The notes: generated by a model from the sequence alone, not told the origin. A DNA stretch of 64,000 nt from Candidatus Binataceae bacterium (GCA_030041155.1 JASHOJ010000142.1:437-64436); one strand, 5' to 3'; positions 9,482 to 49,817 are shown, counted from the stretch's first letter. Numbers and translations: made by a program.

Positions 9482-9632
9482 CTCACCTCACGATCGCGCT
9501 TCTAACGCGCGCGGCGCGCGATGCGCAAGCGCGCGAGTCTGACTCGCGCGAGCATCACAGGAAGATTCATCGACTATCGATATACGAGGGCAACCGGCTC
9601 AGACACCCGATGTGGTAACATCCGCGCCGATT

Positions 9633-10610: not shown

Positions 10611-10665
10611 GCGGGCAGCCGGCTCCTGCTTGCGCGAATCTGGATTGACCAAAGGAGCATTTGCG

Positions 10666-22091: not shown

Positions 22092-25000
22092 TCATTCGAG
22101 GGAAAGATCGACTCGCGCCGTGTTCGTAGGCGAGCCGCCGGCGTGCTCGCTTGCGCTATCCGCGTCGACCTTGGATGCGGTCAAAAACAGCCTGGCCGGA
22201 TCGACCTTGCCGCTTAAGTATTTGCGCACCGCGGCCGCGCGCGCATCCGCCAGCGCGTGCATCGCGCCCGCGCCGGTGTCGACGCTCGCGAGCATCAGGC
22301 TTTTCATCTGGGCAGGCGGCAGCGACTTATCGAGACCGAGAAAATCGCTGGGCTTCTTGATTTTCGCGGCGCTGTAGGCGCGCTTCAGATACTTGTCGTA
22401 CTCGGCGGGCGTGAGTTGCACAGATTCGAGTCCGTTTGGCGAACCGCCGGTGCTCTTGAGCTTTTGAATCCTGATCTGGCGCATCAGAGTCGCCTCGCGC
22501 AAACCGTCGCGATCCACCGCCGGATCGGCACGCCCAGTGATGTTCAGCTTGAGCGAAGGCCGCGCCGCGAGCGCCGCGGCGACTGCGTCCAGGCGCGATT
22601 TCGACTCCGGCGTCAATTCCGATTCGCCTGGCGCAAACGCGACGAAGGAGAGATCCTGCTTGCCACCGCCAAGCGTGCTACCGATAAATCTGAGCGGCGA
22701 GGTTGCCGCCTTAACGATCACGTTCATGAACGCATGCAGAATAACCGCGCCCATCGAAAACTTCGGATCGTTCAGCGAGCCCGAGATCGGCACATCAAGG
22801 TCGATCTCGCCGCGCGGATTCTTTAGCACCGCGACCGCGAGCCTGATCGGCAGGTTGGTCGCGGTTGAGTTCTCGACCTTGTCGCCGAACGTCAATTGAT
22901 CGATGAAAATATGGTTGTCGGCGGTCAGATTACCCTGGTCAAGCAGATAACTGACGTTGACCGTCAGTGTACCGCGTTCAATCGGGTAGCCGGTATAGCG
23001 CGTCGAATACGCCGACAGCCCGCTCAACTCGATTCCGTCGGCCTTCGCCTTCAAGTTCACGTATGCCATCGGCGCGAGCGGATTTACCGAACCGCTTATG
23101 GCAACTGGCGCGCTGCCATTTACCTGCGCGGCAAGCTCGACCGGCGCCGGCGACGACGCTTGGGTGCCGAAAGCGCCAACTTTGCCTTTGATATCGGTCA
23201 GATTAGCCGTGTAGTTCGGCTGGATGAAGTTGTCAGTATAATTCACCCTGCCGCCCGCGAGCGTGACTCGCCCAATGGATATATCGGCATTGAGCTTGTG
23301 GCCCGGAGCCGAAGGTTGCGGCGCATTCGGCTGCGGCGCGGCATTAGGATGCGCCTCGACCAGCGAGGTTGGCGCGGCGTTTGCGCTCCTCATCACATCC
23401 TTCAAGTTGAGCTTGCCGTCGCGATTGAGGATGATCCGCGAATAAAAATTAGTAAGCGATATTGCGCCGATTCGTACTCGCGGCGCGCCGCCGCCCGCGT
23501 CGGCATCGATTCGACTTACGGTGAATGCGCGCCACCTCAGGAAATCCTGCCCGGTCAGCTTGTCGAGAATCGACAGATCGCCGACCGACGCGTCGCCACG
23601 GTAGTTTACCCGCATCTCGCCGCGGCGCTGAGCGAGCGTCACCGCGCCATTCATCGTCAGCCTCGCACTCTTGATCACCGCGTTCATGTAATTTGCGGCC
23701 AATGCGCCGGCGGGCGAGAGGTCGAGACGATCGGTGCTGACGCGCAGACGCGCGTTAAGCGGCGCGGCGGCAATATCGCCGGAAATTTTGAACGATCCCC
23801 TGCGATTAACTGTTCCGCTGATATTCGCGCCGAAAGGTTTCGCCAGATCGCTGCTCAGACCGCTCAAATTGATGTTGAGCGGCGCGACCTCGAGCACCGC
23901 GGAGGACGGCGCGGCAGCATCCTCGATTCGCGCCGCGCTGTTGTCGAGCGCTATTCGTGCGATTGTGAATTGCCATGGCTTTTGCGCCGCGGGCGCAGAC
24001 GCATGCGGCGCTTCGCCGCCGCTTTTGCGTGCAATCCGGCGCGGCGGAGCTCGGCCGTGATGTCGCCGTGCCTGTTCGCTTGAGCGCGACGCGCTTGTCG
24101 GCGCCGGTTGCGCAAGCATCGAAACCAGATTCAATTTTCCGTCGCGTTCGCGACGCACGAGCACGCGGATCGCGTTGGAACGTACTTCGCTGATAGTCGC
24201 GCTATGCGAAGAGAGATCAGCCTTCGCAATCGAGACGGCAAGCTTGGTCCATCCGAGCGGCTTCTGCCCGTCCGGGGTTGCGAGCACGAAATCATCGATA
24301 GCTATCCCCGCCTGATTGGCATGCACGTCGAATTTGCCGGGTGCAAAATCGGTCTCAACCGCGCCGTCGACCGAGAGCTTGCCGCCGGCAATTTTGGCCC
24401 GCATCGCGGCAGCCGCAAAGTCATCCAGCGCCGCCAGATCGATCCGATCGGCCGAAACTCGCGTCGTGATCTTCCGACCCGCGTAATCAAGCGCGCCTTT
24501 GATCTCGATCGAGCCGCCTCCCGACAGGGTTGCTCCGAAATCAATCGGCGACGGCGGACCACCCGCGAGATCGAAGTTCTGGAGTTCCGCGTGGATGGGC
24601 GTTATCGCGAGCACGGCCGGCCGCCGGCCGCTCAGATCGGTAACTTTGATACTGCTGCCGCTAAGTGTGAACGAATCGATCGATATCTCGCGTTGTCCGC
24701 CCTGTGCAGGCTGCGATCCCGCGCTCAGCGGCGCATTCACGGCGACCGCGGGCCGTGCAGCTTGGGCGCCTGAGCCCGAGGGCTCCGGACCGAGGATCGG
24801 CGTCAGATTCGTCGCACCGTCATGGGTTCGCACCAGATTGGCGGCAAGTCCGTCAACCCTGATTCGACCGAGCTTGAAAACTCCGCGCAGCGGCTCGACG
24901 TCATTTAGCGTGGCCATCGCATGCGCGAGCGAAACGATGGGCGCGTTGTCCGGTCCGCGCACCTCCAGCCCGTCCAGCGCCGCTTCCCCCACGATCGCGA

Positions 25001-25862
25001 TTGCGGGACCGCTGTCGTTGGCGATGAAATGAACCTGCAGCGCACACGAGAACGATCCCTGCGGAATGTTGACCGGCAGTTTCACCGGCGCATAGGCAAG
25101 ATAGCGATGAAGATCGAGCCGATGCAGATCCAGGTCGATCACCGACTCGCGAGTCGCGCCGAACGGCTTGCTCTGCCCGCTGATTCGCACCGCGCTGCCG
25201 TCGATCACCATCGCGAGCAGGGGCTGCACGAAAATGTCCACGTCGCGCGGAAGATTGGCGATAAACGGCACCCCAAGCTGTATATGATCAATCGTGTGCT
25301 GCTGTCCCAGCACGCGATCATCGAAATGGATAGTGCCGTCGCGCAGCATGATGTTCGAGACCGAGAACTTAAACGGCTTCTCGGGCCGCGCGTTCGGCTT
25401 TTGCGGCGCTTTCGATTCGAGAAGATCGGAAAAATTGAAGCTCTGCGGCCCGATACGAATCACGTTGAGATCGGGCCGATCGATTGTCACCTCGCGGACC
25501 ACGGGAGCCAGCCGAAACAGCGACGTCCACGAAAGCTTGACCATAAGCCGCGCGACGTCGAGGAGCGGGGTTGGGCCCGCGCGATCACCGATACGTAGCT
25601 GGTCCAGCTCAAGCCTGAGCGTGTAGGGATTGAAGCGAACCGTGCCGACCGCCGCGGGCCGTGCGATACTCGCCGCGACCTGGTGGGTGATGATGTGCCT
25701 GAAAAGCGGCGGTCCTCCGAAAAAACCGGCCGCGCCATAAACCGCGACGACAATCAGGATTACGATCATAATCCGGCGCGCGGCACGGCTACGCGCAACC
25801 TCGGCGGCGCGCGCCGCAGCGACACGTGCATGATCGGCGACCTGTTCAGCGCTTATGCGCAT
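22092..25862 (-). CDS. large AsmA/TamB-like (DUF748-type) membrane-anchored protein
   Basis: 1256 aa with an N-terminal TM anchor (IMIVILIVVAVYGAAGFF) and a long beta-rich body with DUF748/AsmA-like character. Exact start uncertain. Confidence 0.6.
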   Translation of the reverse strand: MRISAEQVADHARVAAARAAEVARSRAARRIMIVILIVVAVYGAAGFFGGPPLFRHIITHQVAASIARPAAVGTVRFNPYTLRLELDQLRIGDRAGPTPLLDVARLMVKLSWTSLFRLAPVVREVTIDRPDLNVIRIGPQSFNFSDLLESKAPQKPNARPEKPFKFSVSNIMLRDGTIHFDDRVLGQQHTIDHIQLGVPFIANLPRDVDIFVQPLLAMVIDGSAVRISGQSKPFGATRESVIDLDLHRLDLHRYLAYAPVKLPVNIPQGSFSCALQVHFIANDSGPAIAIVGEAALDGLEVRGPDNAPIVSLAHAMATLNDVEPLRGVFKLGRIRVDGLAANLVRTHDGATNLTPILGPEPSGSGAQAARPAVAVNAPLSAGSQPAQGGQREISIDSFTLSGSSIKVTDLSGRRPAVLAITPIHAELQNFDLAGGPPSPIDFGATLSGGGSIEIKGALDYAGRKITTRVSADRIDLAALDDFAAAAMRAKIAGGKLSVDGAVETDFAPGKFDVHANQAGIAIDDFVLATPDGQKPLGWTKLAVSIAKADLSSHSATISEVRSNAIRVLVRRERDGKLNLVSMLAQPAPTSASRSSEQARRHHGRAPPRRIARKSGGEAPHASAPAAQKPWQFTIARIALDNSAARIEDAAAPSSAVLEVAPLNINLSGLSSDLAKPFGANISGTVNRRGSFKISGDIAAAPLNARLRVSTDRLDLSPAGALAANYMNAVIKSARLTMNGAVTLAQRRGEMRVNYRGDASVGDLSILDKLTGQDFLRWRAFTVSRIDADAGGGAPRVRIGAISLTNFYSRIILNRDGKLNLKDVMRSANAAPTSLVEAHPNAAPQPNAPQPSAPGHKLNADISIGRVTLAGGRVNYTDNFIQPNYTANLTDIKGKVGAFGTQASSPAPVELAAQVNGSAPVAISGSVNPLAPMAYVNLKAKADGIELSGLSAYSTRYTGYPIERGTLTVNVSYLLDQGNLTADNHIFIDQLTFGDKVENSTATNLPIRLAVAVLKNPRGEIDLDVPISGSLNDPKFSMGAVILHAFMNVIVKAATSPLRFIGSTLGGGKQDLSFVAFAPGESELTPESKSRLDAVAAALAARPSLKLNITGRADPAVDRDGLREATLMRQIRIQKLKSTGGSPNGLESVQLTPAEYDKYLKRAYSAAKIKKPSDFLGLDKSLPPAQMKSLMLASVDTGAGAMHALADARAAAVRKYLSGKVDPARLFLTASKVDADSASEHAGGSPTNTARVDLSLE

Positions 25863-26693: not shown

Positions 26694-27476
26694 TTAGCGC
26701 CCGATAAAACGGGGCTTGCGTTTTTCCACCTTGGCAGCGAACGCCTCGCGCGTATCTTGGGTCAGGAACATTCGCGCATGCCGCTCGCTTTCGAGTGCGA
26801 CATAACCCGCGAAATCCATCCGCTCCGCGTCTACGAAGTTCGCTTTCAGAGTCCTAAGCGCTATCGGCGCCGACTCGGCCAGCCGAGCCGCGACGCTGTC
26901 GACTTCCGGGCGCAGTCGCTCATCGGGAAACACCTGCGAAACCATCCCGATTCTTAGCGCCTCGGCCGCATCGAATTTGCCGGGCAGAAAGTAAAGCTCG
27001 CGCGCCTTTGCGGGTCCGACAATTCTTGAGAGCGACCATGGCCCGCCCATGTCGCCCGCCACCCCAACGTCAAGAAATGCGACGTTGAACTTGGCGGATT
27101 CAGCCGCGAATCTGAAATCGCATCCGAGCGCCCAACCTAGCCCGGCGCCAGCACACGCGCCATTGATTGCCGCGATGGTCACTGCCGGCATCGTGTGCAG
27201 CAGGACCGGGACGCGAAAATCCTCCGGCGTAGTTGGAGGTTCCGGCGCCCCGGAAGCGACCCGGTTGAGGTCGGCGCCCGGGCAGAATCCCTTGCCCGCG
27301 CCGGTGAGAATCAAGACCCGAAGTTCCTTGTCTTCCGCCGCCGCGGCAACCGCTTGCCCGGTCTCCAGCAGCATCTGATTGGTCATCGCATTCAAACGGT
27401 CGGGCCGATTCATCGTAAGCCGGGCGACAGCGCCAGACTTCTCGAAAGTGATTGTCTCGAATTTGGTGCTGCTCAC
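26694..27476 (-). CDS. enoyl-CoA hydratase/isomerase family protein
   Basis: ...ITFEKSGAVARLTMNRPDRLNAM...GAGKGFCPGADL crotonase signature. GTG start at 27476 with GGAGG 7 nt upstream. The long track extension was rejected. Confidence 0.8.
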   Translation of the reverse strand: MSSTKFETITFEKSGAVARLTMNRPDRLNAMTNQMLLETGQAVAAAAEDKELRVLILTGAGKGFCPGADLNRVASGAPEPPTTPEDFRVPVLLHTMPAVTIAAINGACAGAGLGWALGCDFRFAAESAKFNVAFLDVGVAGDMGGPWSLSRIVGPAKARELYFLPGKFDAAEALRIGMVSQVFPDERLRPEVDSVAARLAESAPIALRTLKANFVDAERMDFAGYVALESERHARMFLTQDTREAFAAKVEKRKPRFIGR

Positions 27477-27868
27477 CCTAAGACCTCCGAGAGAACTCCG
27501 ATAGTTCTCCGAAACGCGGAAAAATGAACCGTGCGACCCTGTTCTCGGCCGCCTCGAATGCGGCGTACACATGCTAGGACAAACCGGCGCGAAATCGCTA
27601 TCACGGCAGCCATTTTGCGGCCCGTTTGAGGGTTCTGACGGTGCCGGAAACGCCAACCACGCCAAATCGTCCGATCGATGACTGCAAGGATGCCCTTCTT
27701 TGAGCCGGAAACGGCCATTCCCGGCGTTGCCAACCCCGAGGACTAGTTAGGATGCCAGCCGGGCGGACTTTCAAAGCCGTACGCGCTCGTGCTTACACTA
27801 GGAATCAGCCACAAATCGCCGCCGGACGATAATCGCCGACAGGATGCGAGAGGAAAACAGCAGCGCCC

Positions 27869-30800
27869 ATGCTTCCACAGAGTCTTCTGGTCGCCAACCG
27901 AGGCGAAATTGCAATCCGAATAATTCGTGCGGCCGCTGAACTGGGAATCCGCACCGTCGCGATCTTTTCCGAAGATGATGCTGCCGCGCTTCATATCCGG
28001 AAGGCCGATGAGGCCCGCGCACTGAGCGGCGCCGGAGTCCGACCCTATCTGGACAGCGCCCAGATTGTCGCAATTGCGAAAGAATCGGGATGCGACGCGA
28101 TTCATCCCGGCTACGGCTTCTTATCCGAGAACGCGGACTTCGCGCAGATGTGCGCGGACGCGGGAATTATTTTTGCCGGGCCGCGGCCCGACATTCTCGA
28201 TCTGTTTGGCGACAAGATTCGGGCGCGCGCTTTAGCCTCGCGCCTGGGCGTGCCGGTTCAGCGCGGCAGCTCGCAGATTTCAAGCGCGGATGAGGCGCGA
28301 CAGTTCTTTGCATCACTCGGTCAAGGCGCCGCGATGATGCTGAAAGCGGTCGCGGGCGGCGGCGGGCGCGGGATGCGTGCGGTTTATCGTGAGGACGAGA
28401 TCGCGCCCGCCTTCGAGCGATGCCAATCGGAGGCGCGAAATGCGTTCGGAAATCCGGGCGTGTACGCGGAAGCGCTGATGCCGCGGGCGCGCCATATCGA
28501 GGTGCAGATTGCCGGCGACGGCGATGGCGCGGTTGTTCACCTCTATGAGCGCGAATGCAGCGTTCAGCGCCGTAATCAGAAGATCGTCGAAATCGCGCCC
28601 AGCCCGAACCTCACGACCGCGATCCGCAACCGACTTGCCTCGGCCGCCGTGCGGCTTGCGAAGGAAGTCCGCTACAACAGCCTTGGCACCTTTGAATTTC
28701 TGGTCAGTGCCGAGAGCGGCGCAAAAGAGGCCGATTTCGCCTTTATCGAGGCGAATCCGCGATTGCAGGTCGAACACACGGTCACTGAAGAAGTCACCGG
28801 AATCGACCTGGTGCGTCTGCAGCTCGAGATCGCCGGCGGTGCGCGGTTCCGGGATATCGGAATCTCGCAAGAAACGATTCCGGCGCCTCGGGGATTCGCA
28901 ATCCAGATGCGAATCAACGCGGAGATCATGGGTGAGGACGCGAGCGCACGGCCATCCGGCGGCACGCTGAACGTTTTCGATTCGCCATCCGGCGCGGGAA
29001 TTCGCGTGGATACCTGCGCGTACTCGGGCTACACGACTAATCCGCGCTTCGACCCGCTAATCGCCAAGCTGGTGGTGCATTCTGGATCTCGCGAATTTGC
29101 CGATGCGGTCGCGAAAGCATATCGCGCACTGTGCGAATTCAGGGTTGAGGGTGTCTCCACCAATATCGGATTCATGCAGAATCTGCTGCACCATCCGGAT
29201 TTCGCCGCGGGCCGAGTTCATACCCGCTTCGTCGATGAGCACGCGGGTGCGCTTATCACGGCGCCGCCAGTCGCTCATCGCCGGCTGTTCTTCGAGCGCG
29301 GCCCCGTTTCGCCTTCCAACGCAAGGCGCGCGGGCGCAAAGATCGACACGAGCGATCCATTGGCCGTGCTGCATCATGGCAAAAGCAGCGCGGAAGCCAG
29401 CGATACGAGCGCGCTGGATGCCGGCGCCGCCGAGTTGCAGACGCAATCGCATGCGGAAGCGATATCCGGGCCCGAAGGCACGCTTGCGGTTCCAGCGCCG
29501 ATGCAGGGGACGATTGTCTCGATCGACGTGCACGAAGGTGATCAGGTTCGTCGCGGCCAGCAATTACTGGTGATGGAAGCGATGAAGATGGAGCACGTGA
29601 TCGGCGCGCCCGTGGGCGGAACTGTAAGGCAAATCGCTATCGCGGTGGGAGACGCGGTCTTCGAGGGCCATCCGCTGGCTTTTATCGAGGCGTCGGGCGA
29701 CAACGACACCGAGAGCGAGGCCGAAAGCAAACTTGATCTGGATCGAATCCGTTCCGACCTTGCCGAGGCGCTTGAGCGGCACGCGTTTGGCTACGACCCC
29801 GCGCGTCCCGACGCAGTGGCGCGCCGCCGCAAGACCCATCAGCGCACCGCGCGGGAAAATATCGAGGACCTTTGCGATCCCGGCACCTACGTTGAATACG
29901 GCCCGATCGTAATCGCCGCACAGCGCCGCCGCCGTGCTCTGGACGACCTGATCAAACGCACGCCGGCGGACGGCATGATCGCCGGCATCGGACGTGTGAA
30001 CGGCGACCTGTTCGAGGAATCGCGCGCCCGATGCGTTCTGATGTCCTATGACTACACAGTTCTGGCAGGAACCCAAGGCCAGCAGAATCATCGCAAGAAA
30101 GATCGGATGTTCGAGATCGCGGAGAGGATGCGGCTGCCGGTGGTGTTTTTCACCGAAGGCGGCGGCGGACGCCCGGGCGATACCGACGGCGGGGGCGTCG
30201 CAGGACTGGATTGCATGGCATTCCAGTACTGGGGTCAGTTGAGCGGGCTGGTTCCGCTGGTCGGGATCAATTCGGGACGATGTTTCGCCGGAAACGCGGC
30301 GCTGCTTGGATGCTGCGACGTGGTTATCGCGTCGGAAAACTCGAATATCGGGATGGGCGGACCCGCGATGATCGAAGGCGGCGGCCTCGGCATCTTCCGG
30401 CCAGAGGAAGTCGGCCCGATATCAGTGCAGGTGCCAAACGGCGTAGTCGATATACCGGTCCGCGACGAAGCCGAAGCGGTAAGCGCCGCAAAGAAGTATC
30501 TGTCTTACTTCCAAGGGCCGACTGCCAAATGGGAATGCGCCGATCAGCGCATCCTGCGCGGCATAATCCCGGAGAATCGGTTGCGTATCTACGACGTCCG
30601 CAAAGTTATAGAAACTCTGGCGGACACCGGGTCGGTCCTGGAAATCCGGCGCAGATTCGGTCTGGGGATGGTGACGGCGCTGGTGCGAATCGAGGGCCGG
30701 CCACTTGGAATTATCGCAAACAATCCATCGCATCTGGCCGGAGCTATCGATTCTCCGGGCGCCGACAAGGCCGCGCGCTTCATGCAGCTATGCGACGCCT

Positions 30801-31303
30801 TTGACATTCCGATTTTGTTCCTATGCGACACGCCGGGAATCATGGTCGGCCCCGAGGTCGAGAAGACGGGGCTGGTCCGGCACGCGGCGCGGATGTTCGT
30901 GACTGGCGCGAGTATCACAGTGCCGTTTTTCACGATCATCCTGCGCAAAGGCTATGGACTCGGCGCGCAGGCGATGGCTGGCGGCAGTTTTAAGGCTCCG
31001 ATCTTCACCATTTCGTGGCCGACGGGTGAATTCGGAGGAATGGGACTGGAAGGCGCGGTGAAGCTCGGGTATCGCAACGAACTTGCGGCCGAACAGGATC
31101 CCGCGCAGCGAAAAAAGCTGTTCGACGAGATGGTGGCGCGAATGTACGCGCATGGAAAGGCGGTTAACACAGCGTCGCATTTCGAGATCGATGACGTGAT
31201 CGATCCGTTAGATTCGCGCCGCTGGATTATGGCGGGATTGAAAAGCGCTCCCGAGCCATTGCCGCGCGCCGGCAAGAAGCGCCCCTGTATCGACACCTGG
31301 TAG
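27869..31303 (+). CDS. single-chain multidomain biotin-dependent acyl-CoA carboxylase (biotin carboxylase - BCCP - carboxyltransferase)
   Basis: N-terminal LLVANRGEIAIRIIRAA ... ATP-grasp biotin carboxylase. Central biotinyl domain EAMKMEHVIGAP (about residues 560-620). C-terminal ~520-aa AccD5/PccB-type carboxyltransferase (two crotonase-like subdomains). 1144 aa in one ORF. Confidence 0.85.
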   Translation: MLPQSLLVANRGEIAIRIIRAAAELGIRTVAIFSEDDAAALHIRKADEARALSGAGVRPYLDSAQIVAIAKESGCDAIHPGYGFLSENADFAQMCADAGIIFAGPRPDILDLFGDKIRARALASRLGVPVQRGSSQISSADEARQFFASLGQGAAMMLKAVAGGGGRGMRAVYREDEIAPAFERCQSEARNAFGNPGVYAEALMPRARHIEVQIAGDGDGAVVHLYERECSVQRRNQKIVEIAPSPNLTTAIRNRLASAAVRLAKEVRYNSLGTFEFLVSAESGAKEADFAFIEANPRLQVEHTVTEEVTGIDLVRLQLEIAGGARFRDIGISQETIPAPRGFAIQMRINAEIMGEDASARPSGGTLNVFDSPSGAGIRVDTCAYSGYTTNPRFDPLIAKLVVHSGSREFADAVAKAYRALCEFRVEGVSTNIGFMQNLLHHPDFAAGRVHTRFVDEHAGALITAPPVAHRRLFFERGPVSPSNARRAGAKIDTSDPLAVLHHGKSSAEASDTSALDAGAAELQTQSHAEAISGPEGTLAVPAPMQGTIVSIDVHEGDQVRRGQQLLVMEAMKMEHVIGAPVGGTVRQIAIAVGDAVFEGHPLAFIEASGDNDTESEAESKLDLDRIRSDLAEALERHAFGYDPARPDAVARRRKTHQRTARENIEDLCDPGTYVEYGPIVIAAQRRRRALDDLIKRTPADGMIAGIGRVNGDLFEESRARCVLMSYDYTVLAGTQGQQNHRKKDRMFEIAERMRLPVVFFTEGGGGRPGDTDGGGVAGLDCMAFQYWGQLSGLVPLVGINSGRCFAGNAALLGCCDVVIASENSNIGMGGPAMIEGGGLGIFRPEEVGPISVQVPNGVVDIPVRDEAEAVSAAKKYLSYFQGPTAKWECADQRILRGIIPENRLRIYDVRKVIETLADTGSVLEIRRRFGLGMVTALVRIEGRPLGIIANNPSHLAGAIDSPGADKAARFMQLCDAFDIPILFLCDTPGIMVGPEVEKTGLVRHAARMFVTGASITVPFFTIILRKGYGLGAQAMAGGSFKAPIFTISWPTGEFGGMGLEGAVKLGYRNELAAEQDPAQRKKLFDEMVARMYAHGKAVNTASHFEIDDVIDPLDSRRWIMAGLKSAPEPLPRAGKKRPCIDTW

Positions 31304-31334
31304 CGCGGCCTTGGAATAAGTCTAGTCATTTGCA

Positions 31335-31375
31335 GTATTCGCACGCGCTATAATCGCGGCATCGCGAGCGGGAAC
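31335..31375 (+). promoter_or_regulatory. possible promoter for type III PKS gene (TATAAT at ~31363)
   Basis: GTCATTtgcagtattcgcacgcgcTATAAT about 140 nt upstream of the PKS ATG. Strong RBS aagaggagg before the ATG. Confidence 0.3.
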
Positions 31376-31506
31376 TCGTTTGTGCAGACGGCGGTTTAGT
31401 TGTCGAACGCCGCCGCGACGCTATCCACCCGGTTCCGCTCGCCGCCAGGCAGCCGGACTAAATCAAGCGGCGAAGCCGGTAAACTCAAGAGGAGGCGAGG
31501 CCAGTA

Positions 31507-32556
31507 ATGAAAATCGCCGGAGTTGCGAGCAGGCTTCCCGAAAACGTTTATCCGCAGCACGTGCTGACCGACGCTTTCGCGCGGTACTGGGGAGAGCGTC
31601 TGGTAAATCCTTCGGTTCTCAAGCGAATTCACTCCCGAACCGGCGTCAGAAGCCGCCATCTCGCGTATCCGCTCGAACGTTATGCGCAGTTTCAGCGTTG
31701 GGGAGAAACAAATGCCGCGTGGCTCGCGGCGGCCGAGAAGCTGGGCGCCGACGCGATAGACATGGCGCTCGAGCGCGCCGGAGTTGCGCGGCGCGAAGTT
31801 GACGCGTTGTTTATCGTCTCGATCACCGGAGTCGCGTGCCCGTCTATCGATGCCAAGCTGGTCAATCGGATGGGCCTGCGATCGGACGTGAAGCGCACTC
31901 CTATCTTTGGACTCGGATGCGCTGCCGGAGCGATCGGCCTAACCCGCGCGGCCGATTACGTGCGCGCCTATCCTGACCAGACCGCGATTCTGCTGGCGGT
32001 CGAGCTGTGCTCGCTTACGATGCAGCGAGACGATCTCTCGACCCTGAACCTTATCTCGACCGGATTGTTTGCCGACGGAGCTGCGGCTGCGGTTGTGACT
32101 GGCAAAAATCGCACCGCCCGTGGCCCCGAGATAATCGCCACCCGGTCGGTCTTCTATCCCGACACGGAAAGGATCATGGGATGGGACATCACTGAGCGCG
32201 GATTTAGTCTGGTGCTCTCGCCCGACATACCCGATATCGCCCGCTGCCGGCTAAAGGCGGACGTTGACGCATTTCTTGCCGATCAGTCGCTTAGCCTCGG
32301 CGATATAGGCTGCTGGATTGCGCATCCGGGCGGTCCGAAGGTGCTTGAGGCGATCGAGGCGGCGCTGAAACTGAACAAGGCCGAGCTTGCGGCCTCGTGG
32401 GAGTCGCTCGCGAAGGTGGGAAATATGTCGTCCGCATCGGTGCTTTGCGTGCTAGAAGACACTATCCTCGATCGCCATCCCGAGCCGGGCACGATAGGCA
32501 TCATAGTCGCGCTCGGACCGGGATTTTGCGCCGAGATGCTGCTGGTGCGCTGGTAG
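31507..32556 (+). CDS. type III polyketide synthase (chalcone/stilbene synthase superfamily)
   Basis: 349 aa. N-terminal MKIAGVASRLPENVYPQ. Candidate active-site Cys in GLGCAAGAIGL, plus C-terminal GFGPG-like HPGGPKVL block. Confidence 0.85.
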   Translation: MKIAGVASRLPENVYPQHVLTDAFARYWGERLVNPSVLKRIHSRTGVRSRHLAYPLERYAQFQRWGETNAAWLAAAEKLGADAIDMALERAGVARREVDALFIVSITGVACPSIDAKLVNRMGLRSDVKRTPIFGLGCAAGAIGLTRAADYVRAYPDQTAILLAVELCSLTMQRDDLSTLNLISTGLFADGAAAAVVTGKNRTARGPEIIATRSVFYPDTERIMGWDITERGFSLVLSPDIPDIARCRLKADVDAFLADQSLSLGDIGCWIAHPGGPKVLEAIEAALKLNKAELAASWESLAKVGNMSSASVLCVLEDTILDRHPEPGTIGIIVALGPGFCAEMLLVRW

Positions 32557-32627
32557 CGCTCTTTTGGCTCCGCGATTTGGCGTATAAAGTATCCGCTACT
32601 TGGCGCGAAACGCGGAGCGGGAAGCAG

Positions 32628-33347
32628 GTGGAGAGGCTTTTTCGGGGGCGGTTCACAGTTCTGCTTGCGATGCTGGTGCTGCTGGTGGGTGTGCTCCCGT
32701 TTTTTCAGCAGGAAATAGAGGCTCGTGAGCTGCTCAGAATGGTGCTGTCGCTGGTGTTTATGGCGGCTCTGTACGCCAGCACGCGGCGGCGGCGCGACGT
32801 GGTTTATGCCGGCCTTCTGGTCGCACCTGCCCTGATTGGACGATGGCTGCCGCAACATGAGGTCAGCGAAACCATTCAATTGGTTGTGGCGCTCTTTACC
32901 GCCGCGTTTCTTGCCTATGTGACAGCCGCGGTTCTGAGCCAAGTGCTGCGTCCGGGCCGCGTGACTTACGACACGATAAGCGGCGCGATTTGCGCCTACT
33001 TTCTGATTGGGCTTACGTGGTCGTTCCTATATCTGGCGATCGACCTTGGATGGAACAATGCGTTTGTGGTCGCGGGAGCGCCAGCCAGCCTTGGCAGCGT
33101 GGAACTCATCCGGCTCGAATTGCAGCGGCTCATCTACTATAGCTTCGTCACCCTGACGACACTCGGCTATGGAGACATCATTCCATCGATTCCGCCGGCG
33201 CGCGCGTTATCGATGCTGGAAGCGATAGCGGGCCAGATGTATGTCGCGATCCTGATCGCGCGCCTGGTCGGCCTGCACATCATTCATTCCGAGCGGGAAC
33301 ATGCGCCCGAAACGAAACATGATTCGCCGACAAAGCGCCCCGCCTGA
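32628..33347 (+). CDS. two-TM potassium channel family protein (selectivity filter TTLGYGD)
   Basis: TLTTLGYGDIIPS selectivity-filter signature between TM helices. GTG start at 32628 chosen to avoid overlap with the PKS gene. No RCK domain. Confidence 0.7.
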   Translation: MERLFRGRFTVLLAMLVLLVGVLPFFQQEIEARELLRMVLSLVFMAALYASTRRRRDVVYAGLLVAPALIGRWLPQHEVSETIQLVVALFTAAFLAYVTAAVLSQVLRPGRVTYDTISGAICAYFLIGLTWSFLYLAIDLGWNNAFVVAGAPASLGSVELIRLELQRLIYYSFVTLTTLGYGDIIPSIPPARALSMLEAIAGQMYVAILIARLVGLHIIHSEREHAPETKHDSPTKRPA

Positions 33348-37007: not shown

Positions 37008-39143
37008 CTATTTCGCTTGCCTGATAGCGACGTACGAGCGTTCGAAAATGTCCAAACGCTTGCTCAGGGTCGCCTCTGCATAGTCGTGCTTTCTAACTGT
37101 CCGAAGCTTCGAAATCGAGCGGCGGATCATCGACGCCGGAAGTGTAAACACCATGCGTTTATGTTCGTGCCATATCTCTCGAAGCCACGTCCGCTCCTTC
37201 TCGGTCATTCCTTCGCTTTCCGTTCGATAGACGATCAAACCGAAACGACCATAACTTTGGCCTAAATAGCTCAGCATCTGTCGAAAATCGTCGCGCCCGA
37301 TCTCGACAAAGTTCTTAACTTCCACAGTTAACTGTCGGGTGGCATAGTCCTCAAACACTCGGCGCCAAAAACCGCCTTGTGCCAAGTTCGTAGCAACTAT
37401 GTCGCGCTGCTGCACGTTTCCAGCGTTTGGCTTAAATTGGATGTTCGAAAGTTTGCCCGCGAAAAGGATCCTAAATGCCCGCAAAACCCAATCTTCGAAA
37501 CCTGAATATCCATCATGCCCTAAAGCTATCCGAGGCAGCTCCTCCAGTACTTGTCCGAGGCGCCTAGTCCGAATATCATGGAAGTGGGCTACCCGTTCCC
37601 GAGATTCGGGGTTAAGCCCAGGTTGTTCGAGCTCATCATCCGCGTCGATCACAATGCTATCTTGACCGATTTCCGCAGTCGCATTTAATGCGCGCCAGTA
37701 GCATGGATGAATCGCAATTATTGCGTCGCGTTCCATGTCCAGTAGGTTTGCAGACGCGCCGTCATGGCAGAAGTGGTAATGATCGCTACTAGCATCTTTA
37801 AGCCCGACGAAACCTACGCTGTACAAAGCAACAAAGGCCTCTTGGGCTGAGCCAAACAGTGCAAAATCTGCTGCTGGCTGAGATCCATATCGTTCGCTTT
37901 TGATCGCATTATCAAGCAGCTCCAAAACGAGATGGTATTGATTTAAAGCAGGTTGATTTTCAAAGACTCGGACGAACAATCCAAGACCAGGAAAGACCGT
38001 GTCGTATTCTTTGAGGAGATCGTCGAGCCGGTCGGAAGAGATGCGGTGGCTGGTCGAGACGATATCATCATCGATGATCTCGTGGCGCCCTTGACGCACG
38101 GCCAGCACGTAAGAACTGTTCAACAGCACCAGTAAATCGCGCGGTCGATACAAGGTGTGTTTCAGGCAAAGTTCGAAACCTGTTCGGTCCTGCAAACCGC
38201 GGTCCGCAAAGCGATTCCATACTTTAACATCGCTCTCGACATCGCGCAGATCGTCGAACGCGGCGCGTAGCCTATTGGCTATCAAGTGTAGTAGGGACAG
38301 CTCATCCCAATTTAGTCGAAGAGTCGTACCTTCTATGTGCCTTGAAAAGTCCCGGTCGAAATGTGCCAGCGCTCTGAACATGTTGTCGCGAATGAAAAGC
38401 ACGCCATGGATTCCAACCTTAGAATCTGCGAAATCGGCGACAGCCGCAGCCAATCCGCCCAAGATTGCGGTAGCGGCTTCATCGGGAACCCAACCTTCGT
38501 CTAAACCATCCCACAAGATGATGCCCGAGTGACCAGTTGCCGTGAGCATCGCACGTACATTGTCCTCCAACCAATTAACGCGTAGCTCGGAAGCTATCTT
38601 ACCAGGTATATCATGGGGCGATTGCTTGCTCTGGGCTTTTAGTATAGCGGTGCAACGCTGCGCGCCCGCGGAGGTGGCTAGCAGTGAGTGAGCCTCCTTA
38701 TACATCTGAATGTAGGAATGTTCAGACACTCGCGGAAGCTTATAATGACGAGTCGCCTCAAAGATACTTAGAAGTATATCTATCTTCCAAGCGAGACGGA
38801 GAATGGCGCGGCCGGATCGATAATCCGCATGAACCTCTTGCAGAGCTGTTTGTAAGGCAAGCGTCTCGTGCTCTTTAGGTGTAGAAGCGACTAGAAAGTT
38901 ACCTTGATTATGCTGACCGAAATACTCTGCTGTCTTCTGAAAGAGAGCGCTCTTTCCTGTTCCTCTACGTCCGACGACGCAATTGAAATCCCGAGTATAC
39001 ATCAGCGCTCTGTAATCAGCGGTTTCCACGAACGCCTTCGCTAGCATTACCGAATCCGCTTCTGCACGCCCTGCTCCTAGAACGTTACCAACTAGGTCCT
39101 TAGAGCTCCGCGTCATCACGTGTTGAGCCGTAACTTTAGCCAT
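37008..39143 (-). CDS. P-loop NTPase fused to C-terminal PD-(D/E)xK nuclease-like domain; candidate stand-alone defence protein
   Basis: 711-aa ORF. Walker A GRRGTGKS (aa 58-65) and Walker B GIILWDGLDE (aa 207-216). C-terminal region has GHDGYSGFEDWV ... QQRDIVATN ... LTVEVKNF ... FRQML, consistent with an E...D...ExK restriction-endonuclease-like core. Lower GC than flanks. Confidence 0.6.
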   Translation of the reverse strand: MAKVTAQHVMTRSSKDLVGNVLGAGRAEADSVMLAKAFVETADYRALMYTRDFNCVVGRRGTGKSALFQKTAEYFGQHNQGNFLVASTPKEHETLALQTALQEVHADYRSGRAILRLAWKIDILLSIFEATRHYKLPRVSEHSYIQMYKEAHSLLATSAGAQRCTAILKAQSKQSPHDIPGKIASELRVNWLEDNVRAMLTATGHSGIILWDGLDEGWVPDEAATAILGGLAAAVADFADSKVGIHGVLFIRDNMFRALAHFDRDFSRHIEGTTLRLNWDELSLLHLIANRLRAAFDDLRDVESDVKVWNRFADRGLQDRTGFELCLKHTLYRPRDLLVLLNSSYVLAVRQGRHEIIDDDIVSTSHRISSDRLDDLLKEYDTVFPGLGLFVRVFENQPALNQYHLVLELLDNAIKSERYGSQPAADFALFGSAQEAFVALYSVGFVGLKDASSDHYHFCHDGASANLLDMERDAIIAIHPCYWRALNATAEIGQDSIVIDADDELEQPGLNPESRERVAHFHDIRTRRLGQVLEELPRIALGHDGYSGFEDWVLRAFRILFAGKLSNIQFKPNAGNVQQRDIVATNLAQGGFWRRVFEDYATRQLTVEVKNFVEIGRDDFRQMLSYLGQSYGRFGLIVYRTESEGMTEKERTWLREIWHEHKRMVFTLPASMIRRSISKLRTVRKHDYAEATLSKRLDIFERSYVAIRQAK

Positions 39144-40812: not shown

Positions 40813-41670
40813 TTATGGCGCGAACTTGAACGAGCTGCCGTGTTTGGTGATCTTGCCCGCCGATGGAGTGCCGAAATGGGTGCCGAACACCAGCACTCCG
40901 GTATCGGCGTAGCGCTCGCAGAAGGCGCGGCGGGTTTTCTTTGCCTGCGCGCCGTCGGAATCGAACTGATCATCCCATTCGGGGAACATGCATTGAATCG
41001 GATGATGCATCAGGTCGCCGGTGATGACAGCCTCCTGCCCCTTGGATGAAATCCGGACGCTATGATGCCCCGGAGTATGGCCGGGCGTCGGTTCAAGCCA
41101 AATTTCGTCGGTGATCTTGTGCGTCGAATCAATCAGTTGTGCATGCCCGGAGTCGACAATCGGGCGCACCGAATCCTCCACCGGATCGCGCATATCGGCG
41201 CCATCGAAGTGCGACCAGTAATCCCATTCGGTCCCGCCGATCAGGTATTTCGCGTTGCTGAAAGTCGGAACCCACTTATTGTTTTCAAGCGTGGTGTTCC
41301 ACCCGACGTGATCGACATGCAGATGAGTGCAGACCACGTTGTCGATTTTGTCGCGCGTGTAGCCCGCCTTCTTCAGATCGTCCAGGAATGGGAGCTTGAG
41401 CTTGCTCCACGCGGGATTCGAGCGAACCTTATCGTTGCCGATACAGGTATCCACCACGATCCGCTTGCCGCGCGACTCCAACACCAGCGCATGGATGCTC
41501 ATGACGAGCTTGCCCTTGGCGTCCATGAAATGCGGCTGAAGCCAATCCGCGTACTTGAGCATATTCTCAGGCGTCGCGTTGGGCAGAATAAAGGTGCCGG
41601 GCCATGGCGCCTCGCTCTCGATGATGCGGGTGATCTTGACGTCTCCGATCTGCCATGAGTTCATCGTCAT
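40813..41670 (-). CDS. MBL-fold metallo-hydrolase (AHL-lactonase-like)
   Basis: CTHLHVDHVGWN (HxHxDH) and a later TPGHTPGHH metal-ligand block. Confidence 0.8.
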   Translation of the reverse strand: MTMNSWQIGDVKITRIIESEAPWPGTFILPNATPENMLKYADWLQPHFMDAKGKLVMSIHALVLESRGKRIVVDTCIGNDKVRSNPAWSKLKLPFLDDLKKAGYTRDKIDNVVCTHLHVDHVGWNTTLENNKWVPTFSNAKYLIGGTEWDYWSHFDGADMRDPVEDSVRPIVDSGHAQLIDSTHKITDEIWLEPTPGHTPGHHSVRISSKGQEAVITGDLMHHPIQCMFPEWDDQFDSDGAQAKKTRRAFCERYADTGVLVFGTHFGTPSAGKITKHGSSFKFAP

Positions 41671-42330: not shown

Positions 42331-42819
42331 ATGGCAATTACGGGCCTGGAAGGTACCGAGGCGGACCGCAAGGAAATACTCCGTCTCCACAATCAATGGA
42401 TGCGGGCAAATGTGCATTTGGATATCGCGGCGGCGACTGGAGTGTTCGTCGGCGGAAGCGGATTTCACGGCTTCAATCTGAACGGCCACACCTACGGAAA
42501 ACACGACGAATGGATGAAGCTATGGGACTTTCTCCACGGCGTCATGGATATCGTCGACTTGCGCGAGGAGACAGATCTGCGGCTGAGCATCGATCGCGAC
42601 ATGGCATTTCTGACCTTCGAAGCGACGATTGCGCTGGAGAATGCGTCCGCCGCCGCATCTGGGATGTCGCTGCCGGCTACTGCGGTGCCGATGAGGTTTC
42701 GCGGCACTGAAATTTTCATCCGGCGCGACGAGAACGGCGCCAGAAACTGGAAGATGTGGCATTGTCATTACTCGCCCCACGCACCCGCCGGCGAGCCGCG
42801 TCCCGGCTTCGGAGATTGA
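42331..42819 (+). CDS. NTF2-like (SnoaL/ketosteroid-isomerase-like) family protein
   Basis: 162 aa with an alpha+beta cone-like pattern and a conserved ...ILRLHNQWMRAN... start. Weak family call. Confidence 0.55.
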   Translation: MAITGLEGTEADRKEILRLHNQWMRANVHLDIAAATGVFVGGSGFHGFNLNGHTYGKHDEWMKLWDFLHGVMDIVDLREETDLRLSIDRDMAFLTFEATIALENASAAASGMSLPATAVPMRFRGTEIFIRRDENGARNWKMWHCHYSPHAPAGEPRPGFGD

Positions 42820-42826
42820 CGCGAAA

Positions 42827-43840
42827 ATGCGCAAGGTAAGGCAATTCGGCGTCGGATTTGAAAATCTGCACGCGCGCGAATCGGTTCGGCTCGCCACGCT
42901 CGCGGAGGAAATGGGCTTCGGCACTTGGTGGGTGCCGGAGGACTATTTCTATCGCGGAGCATTCAGCCTTGCGGCCGCGGCGGCAGGCGCAACTTCGCGG
43001 ATCCGGATTGGGATTGGCGTCGTTAACCCCTTCACCCGCCATCCGGCGGCTACCGCGATGGAATTTGGCGCGCTCGACGAGCTTGCCGGCGGCCGCGCGA
43101 TTCTCGGGATGGGCGCGGGGCTGAAAGATTGGATGGAGGGGCGGCTTAAGATTCCATACACGCGACCGGGCACTGCGATGCGCGAGGCGGTCGCGATAAT
43201 TCGCGCGATGCTGCGCCGGGAAACCGTGTCTCATCAGGGACGCGTATTCGCAACCGATGCGGTGCGGCTCAGCTTCACGCCAGAGCGCATCGAGATTCCG
43301 ATTCATCTGGGAGTGCTCGGACCCAGAAACCTGAAGCTCGCGGGTGAAATTGCGGATGGTCTGCTGCTTAGCGTCGCGACTTCCGCGCCATACCTCGAAA
43401 TGGCTACGCGGCAGGTGAGCGAAGGACTCAAGGCGGCGGGGCGCGGTGGTGAAGCATTCGAAATCGGCGGGTATCAGATTCTCTCGATCTCAGAAAACGA
43501 ACGCGAAGCCAGAGATCGCGTGAAGCCGCTCCTGGCCGCTCTTATCGGCGTGATGGCACCTGAGCCAGAGACCCCGATCTTCGCGACCGCGGGCCTGCCG
43601 CCGGATACGATTCGCGCCTTTGGCGCTCGTCTTGCCCGCGGCGAGACCGCTTCCGACATGGTGAGCGACTGGATGATCGACACGTTCGCGATCGCGGGCA
43701 GTCCGGCGCGATGCCGCGAGAATCTTGCGCGGCTGGTGGAGGCGGGACTCGACTGCCCGGTGTTCTTCGAGCTGCCCGGCTATCCGCCCGAGCAGCTAAT
43801 CAGAGATATCCACGTGCATTTGATGCCCCATTTTCTGTAA
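42827..43840 (+). CDS. LLM class (luciferase-like) flavin/F420-dependent oxidoreductase
   Basis: FGVGFENLHARESVRLATLAEEMGFGTWWVPEDYF ... GAGLKDWMEG is typical of the LLM family. Confidence 0.85.
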   Translation: MRKVRQFGVGFENLHARESVRLATLAEEMGFGTWWVPEDYFYRGAFSLAAAAAGATSRIRIGIGVVNPFTRHPAATAMEFGALDELAGGRAILGMGAGLKDWMEGRLKIPYTRPGTAMREAVAIIRAMLRRETVSHQGRVFATDAVRLSFTPERIEIPIHLGVLGPRNLKLAGEIADGLLLSVATSAPYLEMATRQVSEGLKAAGRGGEAFEIGGYQILSISENEREARDRVKPLLAALIGVMAPEPETPIFATAGLPPDTIRAFGARLARGETASDMVSDWMIDTFAIAGSPARCRENLARLVEAGLDCPVFFELPGYPPEQLIRDIHVHLMPHFL

Positions 43841-43866
43841 TTAAGGAATCGCGAGGTGTTGCGATC

Positions 43867-45366
43867 ATGCCGATACAGCCGCCCAGCGAAAATGAACTGC
43901 GCGAAATCGCGCGCGCCCATCAAATGGAGCTGACCGCCGATGAGGTAAAGTCGCTCGGCACCTCGGTCAGCGCGCAACTCCGCGTATTCGAAAAAATCGA
44001 AGCAGGGCGCCCTGAGGCGCGGGGCTCGGTGATGCGCTATCCGACGCGGCAAGACCTCGGGCGTCCCGACCGCAAGGACGATCCTCTCAACGCAATAGTC
44101 CGCCGATGCCTGGTTACCGGCGCGCCATCCGGCAAGCTCAAGGGTAAGCGTATAGGACTGAAGGATAGCGTGTGTGTCGCCGGTATCCAGGTAAGCGGCG
44201 GGTCGCATGTGCTGCAGGGATACACGGCGGACCAGGATGCCACCATCGTTGAGCGGATGCTCGACGCGGGTGCGCAGATTGTCGCGATGCTGAACATGGA
44301 CGACTTCGCGCTGTCGGGCGATGGCCGCACCAGCGCGTATGGCCCCGTGCTGAATCCGCACCGGCAGGAATACTGCACCGGGGGCTCATCATGCGGTTCC
44401 GGAGCCTCCCTCTATTACGACTCGATAGACATCACGATCGGAACCGACCAGGGCGGCTCGATTCGCATCCCCTCATCGTGGTGCGGCGTGGTCGGACTCA
44501 AGCCGAGCTATGGGCTGGTGCCATACACCGGCGTGATGAGTATCGACCCGTCGCTCGATCACGTGGGACCGATGGCGCGGAGCGTAAGCGACGTGGCGCT
44601 TGCGATGGACGTAATTGCCGGAAGAGATCCGCTCGATCAGCGCCAGCTTCACGACCTGCCGAAGATTGAATACACGCGGAATCTCGCGGCGGGAACCAAG
44701 GGCAAGCGGCTTGCGATCGTGCGCGAGGGATTTTCCCAGCCCGGCGGCGAAGACGACGTAAACGACGCGGTCAAAAGTGCGGTCGCGACGCTGGAGAAGG
44801 TTGGCGCGCGCGCCGAAGAAGTCTCGATCCCCGAGCATACCGGCGCATCTGACCTGCTGTTCGCGATCATTCCCGAGGGGATGATGCGGCTGATGCAGAC
44901 CGGCCTCGTCAGCACCCATCATGGCGGCCTTTATAATCCGTCGCTGGCGGAGTTTTACGGCAATCATTATCCCGCGCGCGCCAACCAGGAGGCATCGACC
45001 GTCAAGTTCATGGCGGTGCTTGGCGAGTTCGCCGCGCGCCGCTTCCATGGCCAGCTTTACGCGAAGGCGCAAAATGCGCGCGCCGCGTTGCGCGCCAAAT
45101 ACGACGACGTGCTCAAGCGATTTGACGCGCTGGTGATGCCGACCACACCGATGAAGCCGTTTCGCATCGATGCGCAGGCGCCATACTCGATGATCACCAA
45201 TACCGCGCCTTTCAACATGACCGGCCATCCGGGCCTGAGCGTTCCCTGCGCGCTGTCCGGTGGATTGCCAGTTGGCATGATGCTCATCGGCCGCCATCTC
45301 GACGATGCGACGCTGCTGCAAGTCGGCTACGCGTTTGAGCAGAGCGGCGATTGGCGCAAGCGCTGA
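43867..45366 (+). CDS. amidase (amidase-signature family)
   Basis: GGSSCGSGASL (GGSS[GS]G) motif with a Ser-cisSer-Lys triad context. Trimmed to ATG 43867. Confidence 0.85.
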   Translation: MPIQPPSENELREIARAHQMELTADEVKSLGTSVSAQLRVFEKIEAGRPEARGSVMRYPTRQDLGRPDRKDDPLNAIVRRCLVTGAPSGKLKGKRIGLKDSVCVAGIQVSGGSHVLQGYTADQDATIVERMLDAGAQIVAMLNMDDFALSGDGRTSAYGPVLNPHRQEYCTGGSSCGSGASLYYDSIDITIGTDQGGSIRIPSSWCGVVGLKPSYGLVPYTGVMSIDPSLDHVGPMARSVSDVALAMDVIAGRDPLDQRQLHDLPKIEYTRNLAAGTKGKRLAIVREGFSQPGGEDDVNDAVKSAVATLEKVGARAEEVSIPEHTGASDLLFAIIPEGMMRLMQTGLVSTHHGGLYNPSLAEFYGNHYPARANQEASTVKFMAVLGEFAARRFHGQLYAKAQNARAALRAKYDDVLKRFDALVMPTTPMKPFRIDAQAPYSMITNTAPFNMTGHPGLSVPCALSGGLPVGMMLIGRHLDDATLLQVGYAFEQSGDWRKR

Positions 45367-45370
45367 GGCG

Positions 45371-46552: not shown

Positions 46553-46607
46553 TGCAGGTCCGATTCGCGCGGCCCTGGTAGTTACGAGCGGCCGCCGACC
46601 GAGCCTA

Positions 46608-47270
46608 TCACGCTCGCGGCTCCGGTGTCCCGTACAACACGCGCATCCAGATCGCGACCAGCGTCTCCAGCAGCACTTTCGAGTCGATGCGCGAATCGTG
46701 CTCCAGGCGATCGTTAAGATATCGTTCGTTCATCAGGATGAGAGCGCGCGCGGTCTCGTAAGCGTCGATGGGACGTGTCCGGCCGCTCGAGATTTCGCTT
46801 TTGATTCGCGCCGCGGTTGAGGTGGTCATCCGATCGATCAGCATCGCGAAGGCCCTGCCGACTTTTTTGTCCTGAACCGCCGCGTCCGAGAGCGCACGCA
46901 TCAGGTGGCGATGCTCGCGATAGACCGCGATAACGCCTGCCAGTCCGCGTTCCAAATCAGTGCGCGGATCATTCTCACTCGAAAACCAGACGTCACTGAT
47001 CGGATACATCAGCGCCGTCATCCTCTCGACCAGCTTCATCGCGAGCTCGTACCGATCGCGAAAATATTCATAAAACGAAGGGCGCGACAGACCCGTCCGC
47101 GCCATCAAGTCGTCCACCGTCATCTCGTGAAAAGTATGCCGGCGCAGGAATTTCTCGGCGGCGTCCAGGATCTCGGCGCTTGCGGCTTCCGGGCGTCGCC
47201 GCCGACGCGGCGCGTGCCGCACGGAACCTGACGCCGGCTTCAGCAGCGATTTATCGACGGAGTTAGCCAA
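46608..47270 (-). CDS. TetR/AcrR family transcriptional regulator
   Basis: HTH region ILDAAEKFLRRHTFHEMTVDDLMARTGLSRPSFYEYFRDRYEL. Confidence 0.8.
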   Translation of the reverse strand: MANSVDKSLLKPASGSVRHAPRRRRRPEAASAEILDAAEKFLRRHTFHEMTVDDLMARTGLSRPSFYEYFRDRYELAMKLVERMTALMYPISDVWFSSENDPRTDLERGLAGVIAVYREHRHLMRALSDAAVQDKKVGRAFAMLIDRMTTSTAARIKSEISSGRTRPIDAYETARALILMNERYLNDRLEHDSRIDSKVLLETLVAIWMRVLYGTPEPRA

Positions 47271-47483
47271 TGCTGGGCCATTGAGCTTACGTTATTCCCG
47301 ACGGGGTCGCGAACATGATGGCGGATAGCAGTGCTTGTCATCTATTAGCTTGTTAAAGAATGTTTGTCTGAGGAGCAGTTCGCCTATGCTCGTAGCATCA
47401 GCGGTTACGACAATCTCAGTTTACAGATATTCGCGTCAACTCCCCGTCCAAAGCTAAAATGAAGCGCGGTTTGGGGGCTTACG

Positions 47484-49817
<2,334 letters not shown>

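Follow-up and report, generated by a model that had tools for sequence, protein, structure and literature searches.

The locus

Two adjoining genes are considered here, in a 64,000-nucleotide stretch of DNA from Candidatus Binataceae bacterium (GCA_030041155.1, JASHOJ010000142.1:437-64436), the whole of which is referred to as the window. At 27869-32556, on the plus strand, lie a gene for a single-chain acyl-CoA carboxylase of the LCC family and, 203 nt downstream of it, a gene for a type III polyketide synthase (PKS). To their left, on the minus strand, are a gene for an enoyl-CoA hydratase/crotonase (ECH) and a gene for a VOC-fold protein, and the four genes are flanked by genes for an AsmA/DUF748 envelope protein and a two-pore-type K+ channel. 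A preliminary description of this DNA had taken them for a compact, self-contained module, in which a dedicated carboxylase makes the extender unit that the PKS uses. The comparison with relatives favours a different reading, in which independent units would have come to lie side by side through local rearrangement.

The single-chain carboxylase

The carboxylase gene (27869-31303, plus strand) encodes a protein of 1144 amino acids and 122.9 kDa, in which Pfam matches and alignment to the solved structure 4rcn define three successive domains. The biotin carboxylase (BC) domain occupies residues 4-456 (27878-29236; PF00289, PF02786 and PF02785, with Biotin_carb_N at residues 4-109, CPSase_L_D2 at 115-327 and Biotin_carb_C at 346-456). 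It is followed by the biotinyl carrier domain (biotin carboxyl carrier protein, BCCP) at residues 541-605 (29489-29683; Biotin_lipoyl, PF00364, 7.7e-17) and by the carboxyltransferase (CT) domain at residues 657-1122 (29837-31234; Carboxyl_trans, PF01039, 1.4e-74). The biotinylation site and the BC catalytic motifs are intact: the biotinyl lysine, Lys573, lies in the motif EAMKMEH (codon 29585-29587), and the BC domain retains the GGGGRGM loop at residue 163 and EANPRLQVEH at residue 294. None of the eight Pfam matches in the scan is to a central-domain family of the acetyl-CoA carboxylases (ACC), and the gap between the BCCP and CT domains is only ~50 residues. A frameshift artefact fusing two genes was ruled out, since the same reading frame is present in an independent assembly and thousands of homologues are equal in length. 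The independent contig (L161, from Logan SRR21679867) aligns to the window at 99.93% identity over 7211 nt with no gap, and the order of the four genes is identical in both. The single 1144-residue BC-BCCP-CT frame of the preliminary description, with its AMKM carrier domain and no central domain, is therefore confirmed as one gene by the Pfam matches, the motifs and this contig. Exact-sequence look-ups found neither the window carboxylase nor the window PKS on record, and an entry 99.9% identical (P0001) stood in for exact-sequence records.

When the full-length protein was compared with solved structures, the top match was the LCC of Mycobacterium avium subsp. paratuberculosis (4rcn; E=0, 1147 bits), followed by the single-chain carboxylase of Deinococcus radiodurans, in the form of its CT and BC fragments (5fif and 5h80). 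With these proteins it shares a single chain of ~120 kDa, the BC-BCCP-CT order and the lack of a BT or eukaryotic central domain. The alignment to 4rcn is colinear, residues 4-465 (BC) matching residues 3-469 and residues 533-1121 (BCCP and CT) matching residues 483-1070; the earlier suggestion that the mycobacterial LCC may have a different domain order does not hold, as the two proteins align end to end. Searched alone, the CT region scored 695 bits against 4rcn and 606 bits against 5fif, the next match being the PCC beta subunit 1vrg at 232 bits, and no PCC, ACC, MCC or GCC beta subunit scored above that value. By this bit-score gap among solved structures, the CT domain groups with those of LCC and the Deinococcus enzyme, well apart from PccB, AccD5 and other AccD proteins, from MCC and GCC, and from eukaryotic CTs. 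The domain had been described as a carboxyltransferase of 'PccB/AccD5-type'; the activity stands, and the subtype is replaced by the LCC type. Judged by its sequence, the carboxylase is thus a further member of a known and abundant family. It differs from 4rcn in a longer linker between the BC and BCCP domains (29264-29464, residues 466-532), which is of low complexity, rich in Ala, Ser and Pro and ~68 residues long, compared with ~13 in 4rcn, and also in its source, a Binataceae metagenome-assembled genome (MAG).

Members of the LCC family are reported to carboxylate acyl-CoAs from C2 to C16, with a Km far lower for palmitoyl-CoA than for acetyl-CoA; they are described as domain-swapped homohexamers and have been linked to the use of carbon and nitrogen sources (PMC6491548). 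A second kind of bacterial single-chain enzyme, represented by SACE_4237 of Saccharopolyspora erythraea, is a ~200 kDa homodimer that contains the eukaryotic central region and has a CT resembling that of eukaryotes (PMC6491548). The window protein shares with it the presence of BC, BCCP and CT on one polypeptide, but at 123 kDa and 1144 residues, with no central-domain match and with an LCC-type CT, it is not a eukaryote-like multidomain ACC of that type.

The preliminary description had regarded a single-chain carboxylase as unusual for bacteria, a view that is not sustained by the size and spread of the family. A homologue search returned at least 8000 matches at E <= 1e-50, and the best matches listed were 71-80% identical over their full length, many of them annotated as Candidatus Binataceae. 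With each GTDB species represented by a single genome, a scan yielded at least 595 relatives, spread over Binatia, Myxococcota, Chloroflexota, Actinomycetes, Bradyrhizobium, Afipia, Pseudomonas, Herbaspirillum and others. When all open reading frames (ORFs) within 5 kb of the carboxylase gene were clustered over 81 loci, the commonest neighbours were ECH (11) and acyl-CoA dehydrogenase (10), followed by short-chain dehydrogenase/reductase, CoA-transferase III and AMP-dependent acyl-CoA synthetase (7 each) and, more rarely, by P450 (6), luciferase-like monooxygenase (5) and aldehyde dehydrogenase (4). The neighbourhood of the family is one of acyl-CoA metabolism and not a biosynthetic one. At least two LCC-type paralogues are present in each of two MAGs (L004 and L020 in DATDGX, L007 and L042 in DATJWT), and the Binataceae paralogues are ~73% and ~63-67% identical to the window protein.

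The type III polyketide synthase and its partners

The PKS gene (31507-32556, plus strand) encodes a protein of 349 amino acids, of the Pks10/Pks11/SrsA/ArsB kind, with Pfam matches to Chal_sti_synt_N and Chal_sti_synt_C. Its best match among solved structures is Pks11 of M. tuberculosis (4jao; E 1.1e-93, aligned over residues 3-349), followed by CylI and the THN synthase of S. coelicolor. Alignment to Pks11 places a complete catalytic triad at Cys138 (31918-31920), His273 (32323-32325) and Asn306 (32422-32424), the assignment of Cys138 being backed by the entry for the Pks11 C138S mutant (4jat). Trp226 (32182-32184), in the motif IMGWDI, aligns with W230 in the IMGWDV motif of Pks11. The position of Pks11 W230 and ArsB W281 is reported to be essential for resorcinol formation by aldol cyclisation and to be conserved in FtpA, SrsA, PKS10 and PKS11, and enzymes of the Pks11 type reportedly use both malonyl- and methylmalonyl-CoA (PMC5916927). 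The full-length match to Pks11, the Cys-His-Asn triad and the resorcinol tryptophan are thus features that the window PKS has in common with Pks10/Pks11, SrsA, ArsB, FtpA and PkqA. Since the resorcinol-determining Trp226 is kept, it is likely to be an alkylresorcinol or alkylpyrone synthase, and in this respect, as in the placing of a 349-residue PKS ~200 nt downstream of the carboxylase, the preliminary description is upheld. A DpgA-like identity, with the ECH aiding the PKS as in DpgABCD, was ruled out by a score of 179.7 bits against NF042429, for which the cut-off is 425; a DpgB- or DpgD-type partner role for the ECH was likewise rejected, as the ECH belongs to a separate ECH-VOC operon that lies away from any PKS.

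The spacer between the carboxylase and PKS genes (31304-31506, plus strand, 203 nt) contains a Shine-Dalgarno sequence, GAGGAGG...GAGG, ahead of the PKS ATG. No sigma-70-like promoter was found in it by a consensus scan; by eye, a TATAAT is present at ~31349, with no good -35 element. The strong ribosome-binding site attributed earlier to the PKS is retained, and the case for the putative promoter is weaker than first put. Terminator-like sites were likewise absent from the scan of the spacer, the fold of which is no more stable than that of shuffled sequence (z = 0.42), and there are no Rfam or tRNA matches in the window. Site scan, Rfam and folding thus gave no sign of a regulatory RNA or a terminator in the spacer. 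A terminator-like hairpin was predicted by the scan to overlap the PKS stop codon. With neither a promoter nor a terminator found in the spacer, transcription in the window genome could run on from the carboxylase into the PKS, which is the strongest argument for the module first proposed.

The partners that type III PKS genes of this kind usually have were sought in 80 metagenomic loci with PKSs of 53-67% identity (L082-L160 among them). A gene for an FAD-dependent oxidoreductase lies immediately 3' of the PKS in 65 of the 80 loci, and in 29 a gene for a YceI-family lipid-binding protein comes after it. Examples of the resulting PKS-FAD oxidoreductase(-YceI) operon are L002 16907-19746, L167 16443-18634 and L168 14386-17261, and in L167 and L168 the start of the oxidoreductase gene overlaps the PKS stop codon. 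A methyltransferase was not seen in most of the 80 loci. This pairing fits the published pattern, in which PKS operons add a methyltransferase and/or an FAD hydroxylase, as in SrsABC, PkqABC and 58/96 Planctomycetota clusters (PMC9927152, PMC10896814). Whereas known alkylresorcinol/alkylpyrone operons have such tailoring genes, the window PKS has none of them: tblastn found no homologue of the FAD oxidoreductase, the YceI protein, the ABC pair described below or the alpha/beta hydrolase anywhere in the 64-kb window. The absence of a tailoring operon is a feature of context and leaves the classification of the PKS unaffected. Comparison of the gene orders suggests that the window PKS has lost its usual FAD oxidoreductase, YceI and hydrolase partners, and without the oxidoreductase its product would presumably remain a resorcinol or a pyrone.

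Conservation of gene order

To the carboxylase side, the neighbours of the gene in the window were searched by tblastn against 80 carboxylase loci, each taken with flanks of 10 kb at most, and a type III PKS was found within 10 kb of the carboxylase in just one of them (L002, 3.5 kb off). To the PKS side, the carboxylase was detected in none of the 80 PKS loci. Upstream sequence extends to 1 kb or more in 57 of these and to 4 kb or more in 34, which gives 0/57 informative loci. The conserved co-occurrence with the PKS that would mark a dedicated carboxylase was thus not observed on either side (1/80 and 0/57).

Both genes are close together in one clade, made up of L001, L002, L167, L168 and L169, the carboxylases of which are 78-80% identical, and of L081, which holds merely the last 52 nt of the carboxylase gene at a contig end. 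The clade has a common gene order. On the left, a minus-strand AsmA gene is followed by the plus-strand LCC gene and then by a small Haem_bd gene, where present, and, where present, by genes for an ABC-2 permease and its ATPase on the opposite strand. On the right, there follow on the plus strand the PKS, the FAD oxidoreductase, the YceI protein (not in all members), the alpha/beta hydrolase and the K+ channel, then PPK on the minus strand, TetR, an M20 peptidase and an amidase. The opposite-strand ABC pair comes after the carboxylase in at least five lineages. In L002, L167 and L081 it lies between the carboxylase and the PKS, and there is therefore no co-transcription of the two genes there; in L001 and L169 it follows the carboxylase and the contig ends before any PKS could show. 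Since the conserved block is made up of functionally unrelated genes, it looks like inherited synteny rather than the outcome of selection for an LCC-PKS unit. The low co-occurrence, the unrelated genes of the block and the intervening ABC pair together speak against a dedicated carboxylase in a self-contained module, and that part of the preliminary description is set aside. In L167 the AsmA gene was called as two pieces (6047-9791; 853 and 403 amino acids) and the ABC ATPase as two fragments (15171-16122; 178 and 69 amino acids); both are probably due to assembly frameshifts, or else the genes are pseudogenes.

The two anchors of the block are recognisable in the window. The left anchor is the AsmA/DUF748 envelope protein gene (22092-25862, minus strand), identified by Pfam and by synteny with L001, L002, L167, L168 and L169; in relatives it directly adjoins the carboxylase. 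The right anchor is the two-pore-type K+ channel gene (Ion_trans_2; 32397-33347, plus strand, by Pfam), the true start of which is probably near 32.6 kb, because its orthologues are ~240 amino acids long. These orthologues are 58-62% identical and are found 3' of PKS-FAD oxidoreductase-(YceI)-hydrolase in L002, L167 and L168. Between the anchors, the window differs from the clade in having the ECH and VOC genes between AsmA and the LCC gene, in lacking the Haem_bd and ABC genes, and in lacking the FAD oxidoreductase, YceI and hydrolase genes, so that the PKS abuts the K+ channel. To the right, the PPK-TetR-M20 peptidase-amidase block is inverted in the window, at 43711-49817, and displaced by ~10-14 kb (compare L168 18967-23441), with YkoP, an OPT transporter, a 711-residue ORF and an FAA-hydrolase lying between the K+ channel and the inverted block. 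On these gene orders, the window is most likely a rearranged derivative, in which the compact cluster would have arisen through deletions and an insertion; the polarity of the change was set by parsimony, several lineages against one, with no outgroup.

The ECH and VOC genes

The ECH gene (26694-27476, minus strand) encodes 260 amino acids from a GTG start (PF00378, 6.5e-55; best structure match 2ej5, 6e-48). The mechanical ORF at 26694-27665, of 323 amino acids, is most likely overlong, as the start of the 260-residue form has a GGAGG ribosome-binding site and agrees with the gene call in L161. From its sequence, the protein is assigned as a generic crotonase. The VOC-fold gene (25908-26678/26687, minus strand; Glyoxalase_3, PF13468, 5.7e-6) encodes 256-259 amino acids, and the N-terminal half of the protein is weakly like methylmalonyl-CoA epimerase (TIGR03081, 2.2e-8, 34.7 bits against a cut-off of 114.95; PDB 3rmu, 5e-4). 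It has more than 6000 homologues, the best 120 of which are 64-78% identical, several being annotated as Binatia or Binataceae and one as Methylomirabilota.

Orthologues of both genes (76-80% identical for ECH, 71-77% for VOC) occur in other Binatia (L162-L164) as an ECH-ECH-VOC operon with all genes on one strand, for example at L162 6362-8765 and L164 6263-8771, and in these three loci there is no carboxylase or PKS within 8 kb of the operon. As the orthologues lie away from both genes in other Binatia, the ECH-VOC pair is regarded as an independent unit. The preliminary description had identified the divergent ECH and VOC genes and their orientation correctly; their membership in a PKS module is contradicted by this operon.

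The rest of the window

A larger hidden cluster was ruled out, as the other large ORFs scanned, from ~7.7 to 52.5 kb, are by Pfam miscellaneous housekeeping genes, save for one ECH. This second crotonase-family gene (10630-11472, plus strand) is found 16 kb upstream, flanked by an unannotated ORF and a gene for a peroxiredoxin; its product is ~30% identical to the first ECH. No Pfam match at E <= 1e-5 was found for the ORFs at 37008-39143 (minus strand, 711 amino acids), 9612-10436 (plus), 41062-41658 (plus), 42716-43306 (minus) and 50757-51452 (minus).

Interpretation

The reading that we favour, with a probability of about 0.7, is that three independent units have been brought together by local rearrangement in the Binataceae lineage, and that the locus is not a dedicated polyketide cluster. 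The first unit would be the carboxylase. By homology to 4rcn, its BC domain would use ATP and bicarbonate to carboxylate the biotin on Lys573, and the BCCP domain would carry the carboxybiotin to the LCC-type CT, which would carboxylate the alpha-carbon of an acyl-CoA; by analogy with the characterized LCCs, the enzyme probably accepts a broad range of acyl-CoAs (C2-C16) and serves general acyl-CoA or lipid metabolism. The second unit would be the PKS, in which Cys138 most likely takes up a long-chain acyl starter, to be extended with malonyl (possibly methylmalonyl) units and then cyclised to an alkylresorcinol and/or alkylpyrone. The PKS may well draw its malonyl-CoA from the general pool of the cell, and nothing marks the window carboxylase as its dedicated supplier. 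The third would be an acyl-CoA-related two-gene ECH-VOC operon, inserted between AsmA and the carboxylase.

Several points weigh against this reading. The carboxylase and the PKS are no more than ~3.5 kb apart in every clade member that shows both (the window, L002, L167, L168 and L081), and co-transcription is possible in the window: there the two genes are co-oriented and divided only by the 203-nt spacer, for which no terminator was predicted, and a terminator-like hairpin comes after the PKS. It is also from homology and gene neighbourhoods that we infer the role of the carboxylase in general acyl-CoA metabolism. A functional link between carboxylase and PKS that is confined to the Binataceae clade is accordingly given a small share of the probability, somewhat below that of either of the two alternatives taken up next.

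The best placed of the alternatives, though itself unlikely, joins the carboxylase to the divergent ECH and VOC genes in an acyl-CoA catabolic or anaplerotic module, with the PKS as a bystander; the ECH would act as hydratase or isomerase, the carboxylase would carboxylate the alpha-carbon, and the epimerase-like VOC protein would epimerise the resulting 2-carboxyacyl-CoA. ECH is the commonest neighbour of LCC genes (11/81 loci, in five of them directly adjacent, and both divergent and adjacent in L065 and L075), but the ECHs beside other LCCs are just 26-40% identical to that of the window and so appear to be generic crotonases. VOC homologues adjoin LCC genes in the distant phyla of L021 (Tepidiformaceae, 53%) and L053 (Phenylobacterium, 43%), yet the true ECH-VOC orthologues of other Binatia have no carboxylase within 8 kb, and the nearest relatives of the window carboxylase have AsmA directly upstream, not ECH-VOC. 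The resemblance of the VOC N-terminal half to methylmalonyl-CoA epimerase, which would suit the third step, falls well under the family cut-off.

Slightly less probable again is the model of the preliminary description, a co-transcribed two-gene module in which the carboxylase supplies malonyl-, methylmalonyl- or 2-alkylmalonyl-CoA to the PKS. The arrangement of strand, spacer and hairpin in the window agrees with it, as does the loss there of the intervening genes, by which read-through is permitted; the vicinity of the two genes is kept over the Binataceae clade; and the chemistry is compatible, given that Pks11-type enzymes reportedly take both malonyl- and methylmalonyl-CoA (PMC5916927) and that LCCs are reported to act on C2-C16 acyl-CoAs (PMC6491548). 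The pairing is, however, absent outside this one clade, and within it the opposite-strand ABC pair separates the genes in L002, L167 and L081 and follows the carboxylase in L001 and L169. The block that keeps them together retains the unrelated AsmA, K+ channel, PPK, TetR, peptidase and amidase genes as well, as expected of synteny that looks inherited, and the true conserved partners of the PKS are the FAD oxidoreductase and YceI. The least probable proposal, that LCC and PKS are functionally coupled in this clade and that the window is a streamlined bicistron, the LCC-made extender (possibly a long 2-alkylmalonyl-CoA) leading to branched or dialkyl phenolic lipids, is considered improbable.

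Significance

Were a coupling of LCC and PKS nonetheless true, it would be the first physiological role for an LCC enzyme. As it stands, the assembly of independent units that we favour extends the LCC-family carboxylases and the Pks11-like type III PKSs by a single member each, both from an uncultured Binataceae genome. For the carboxylase family, LCCs have been termed 'rare' (Livieri et al., PMC6491548), whereas LCC-type single-chain carboxylases are found here to be abundant over many bacterial phyla. For the PKS, the survey of relatives in soil metagenomes brings out a highly uniform PKS-FAD oxidoreductase(-YceI) operon, the tailoring part of which appears to have been lost in the window genome.

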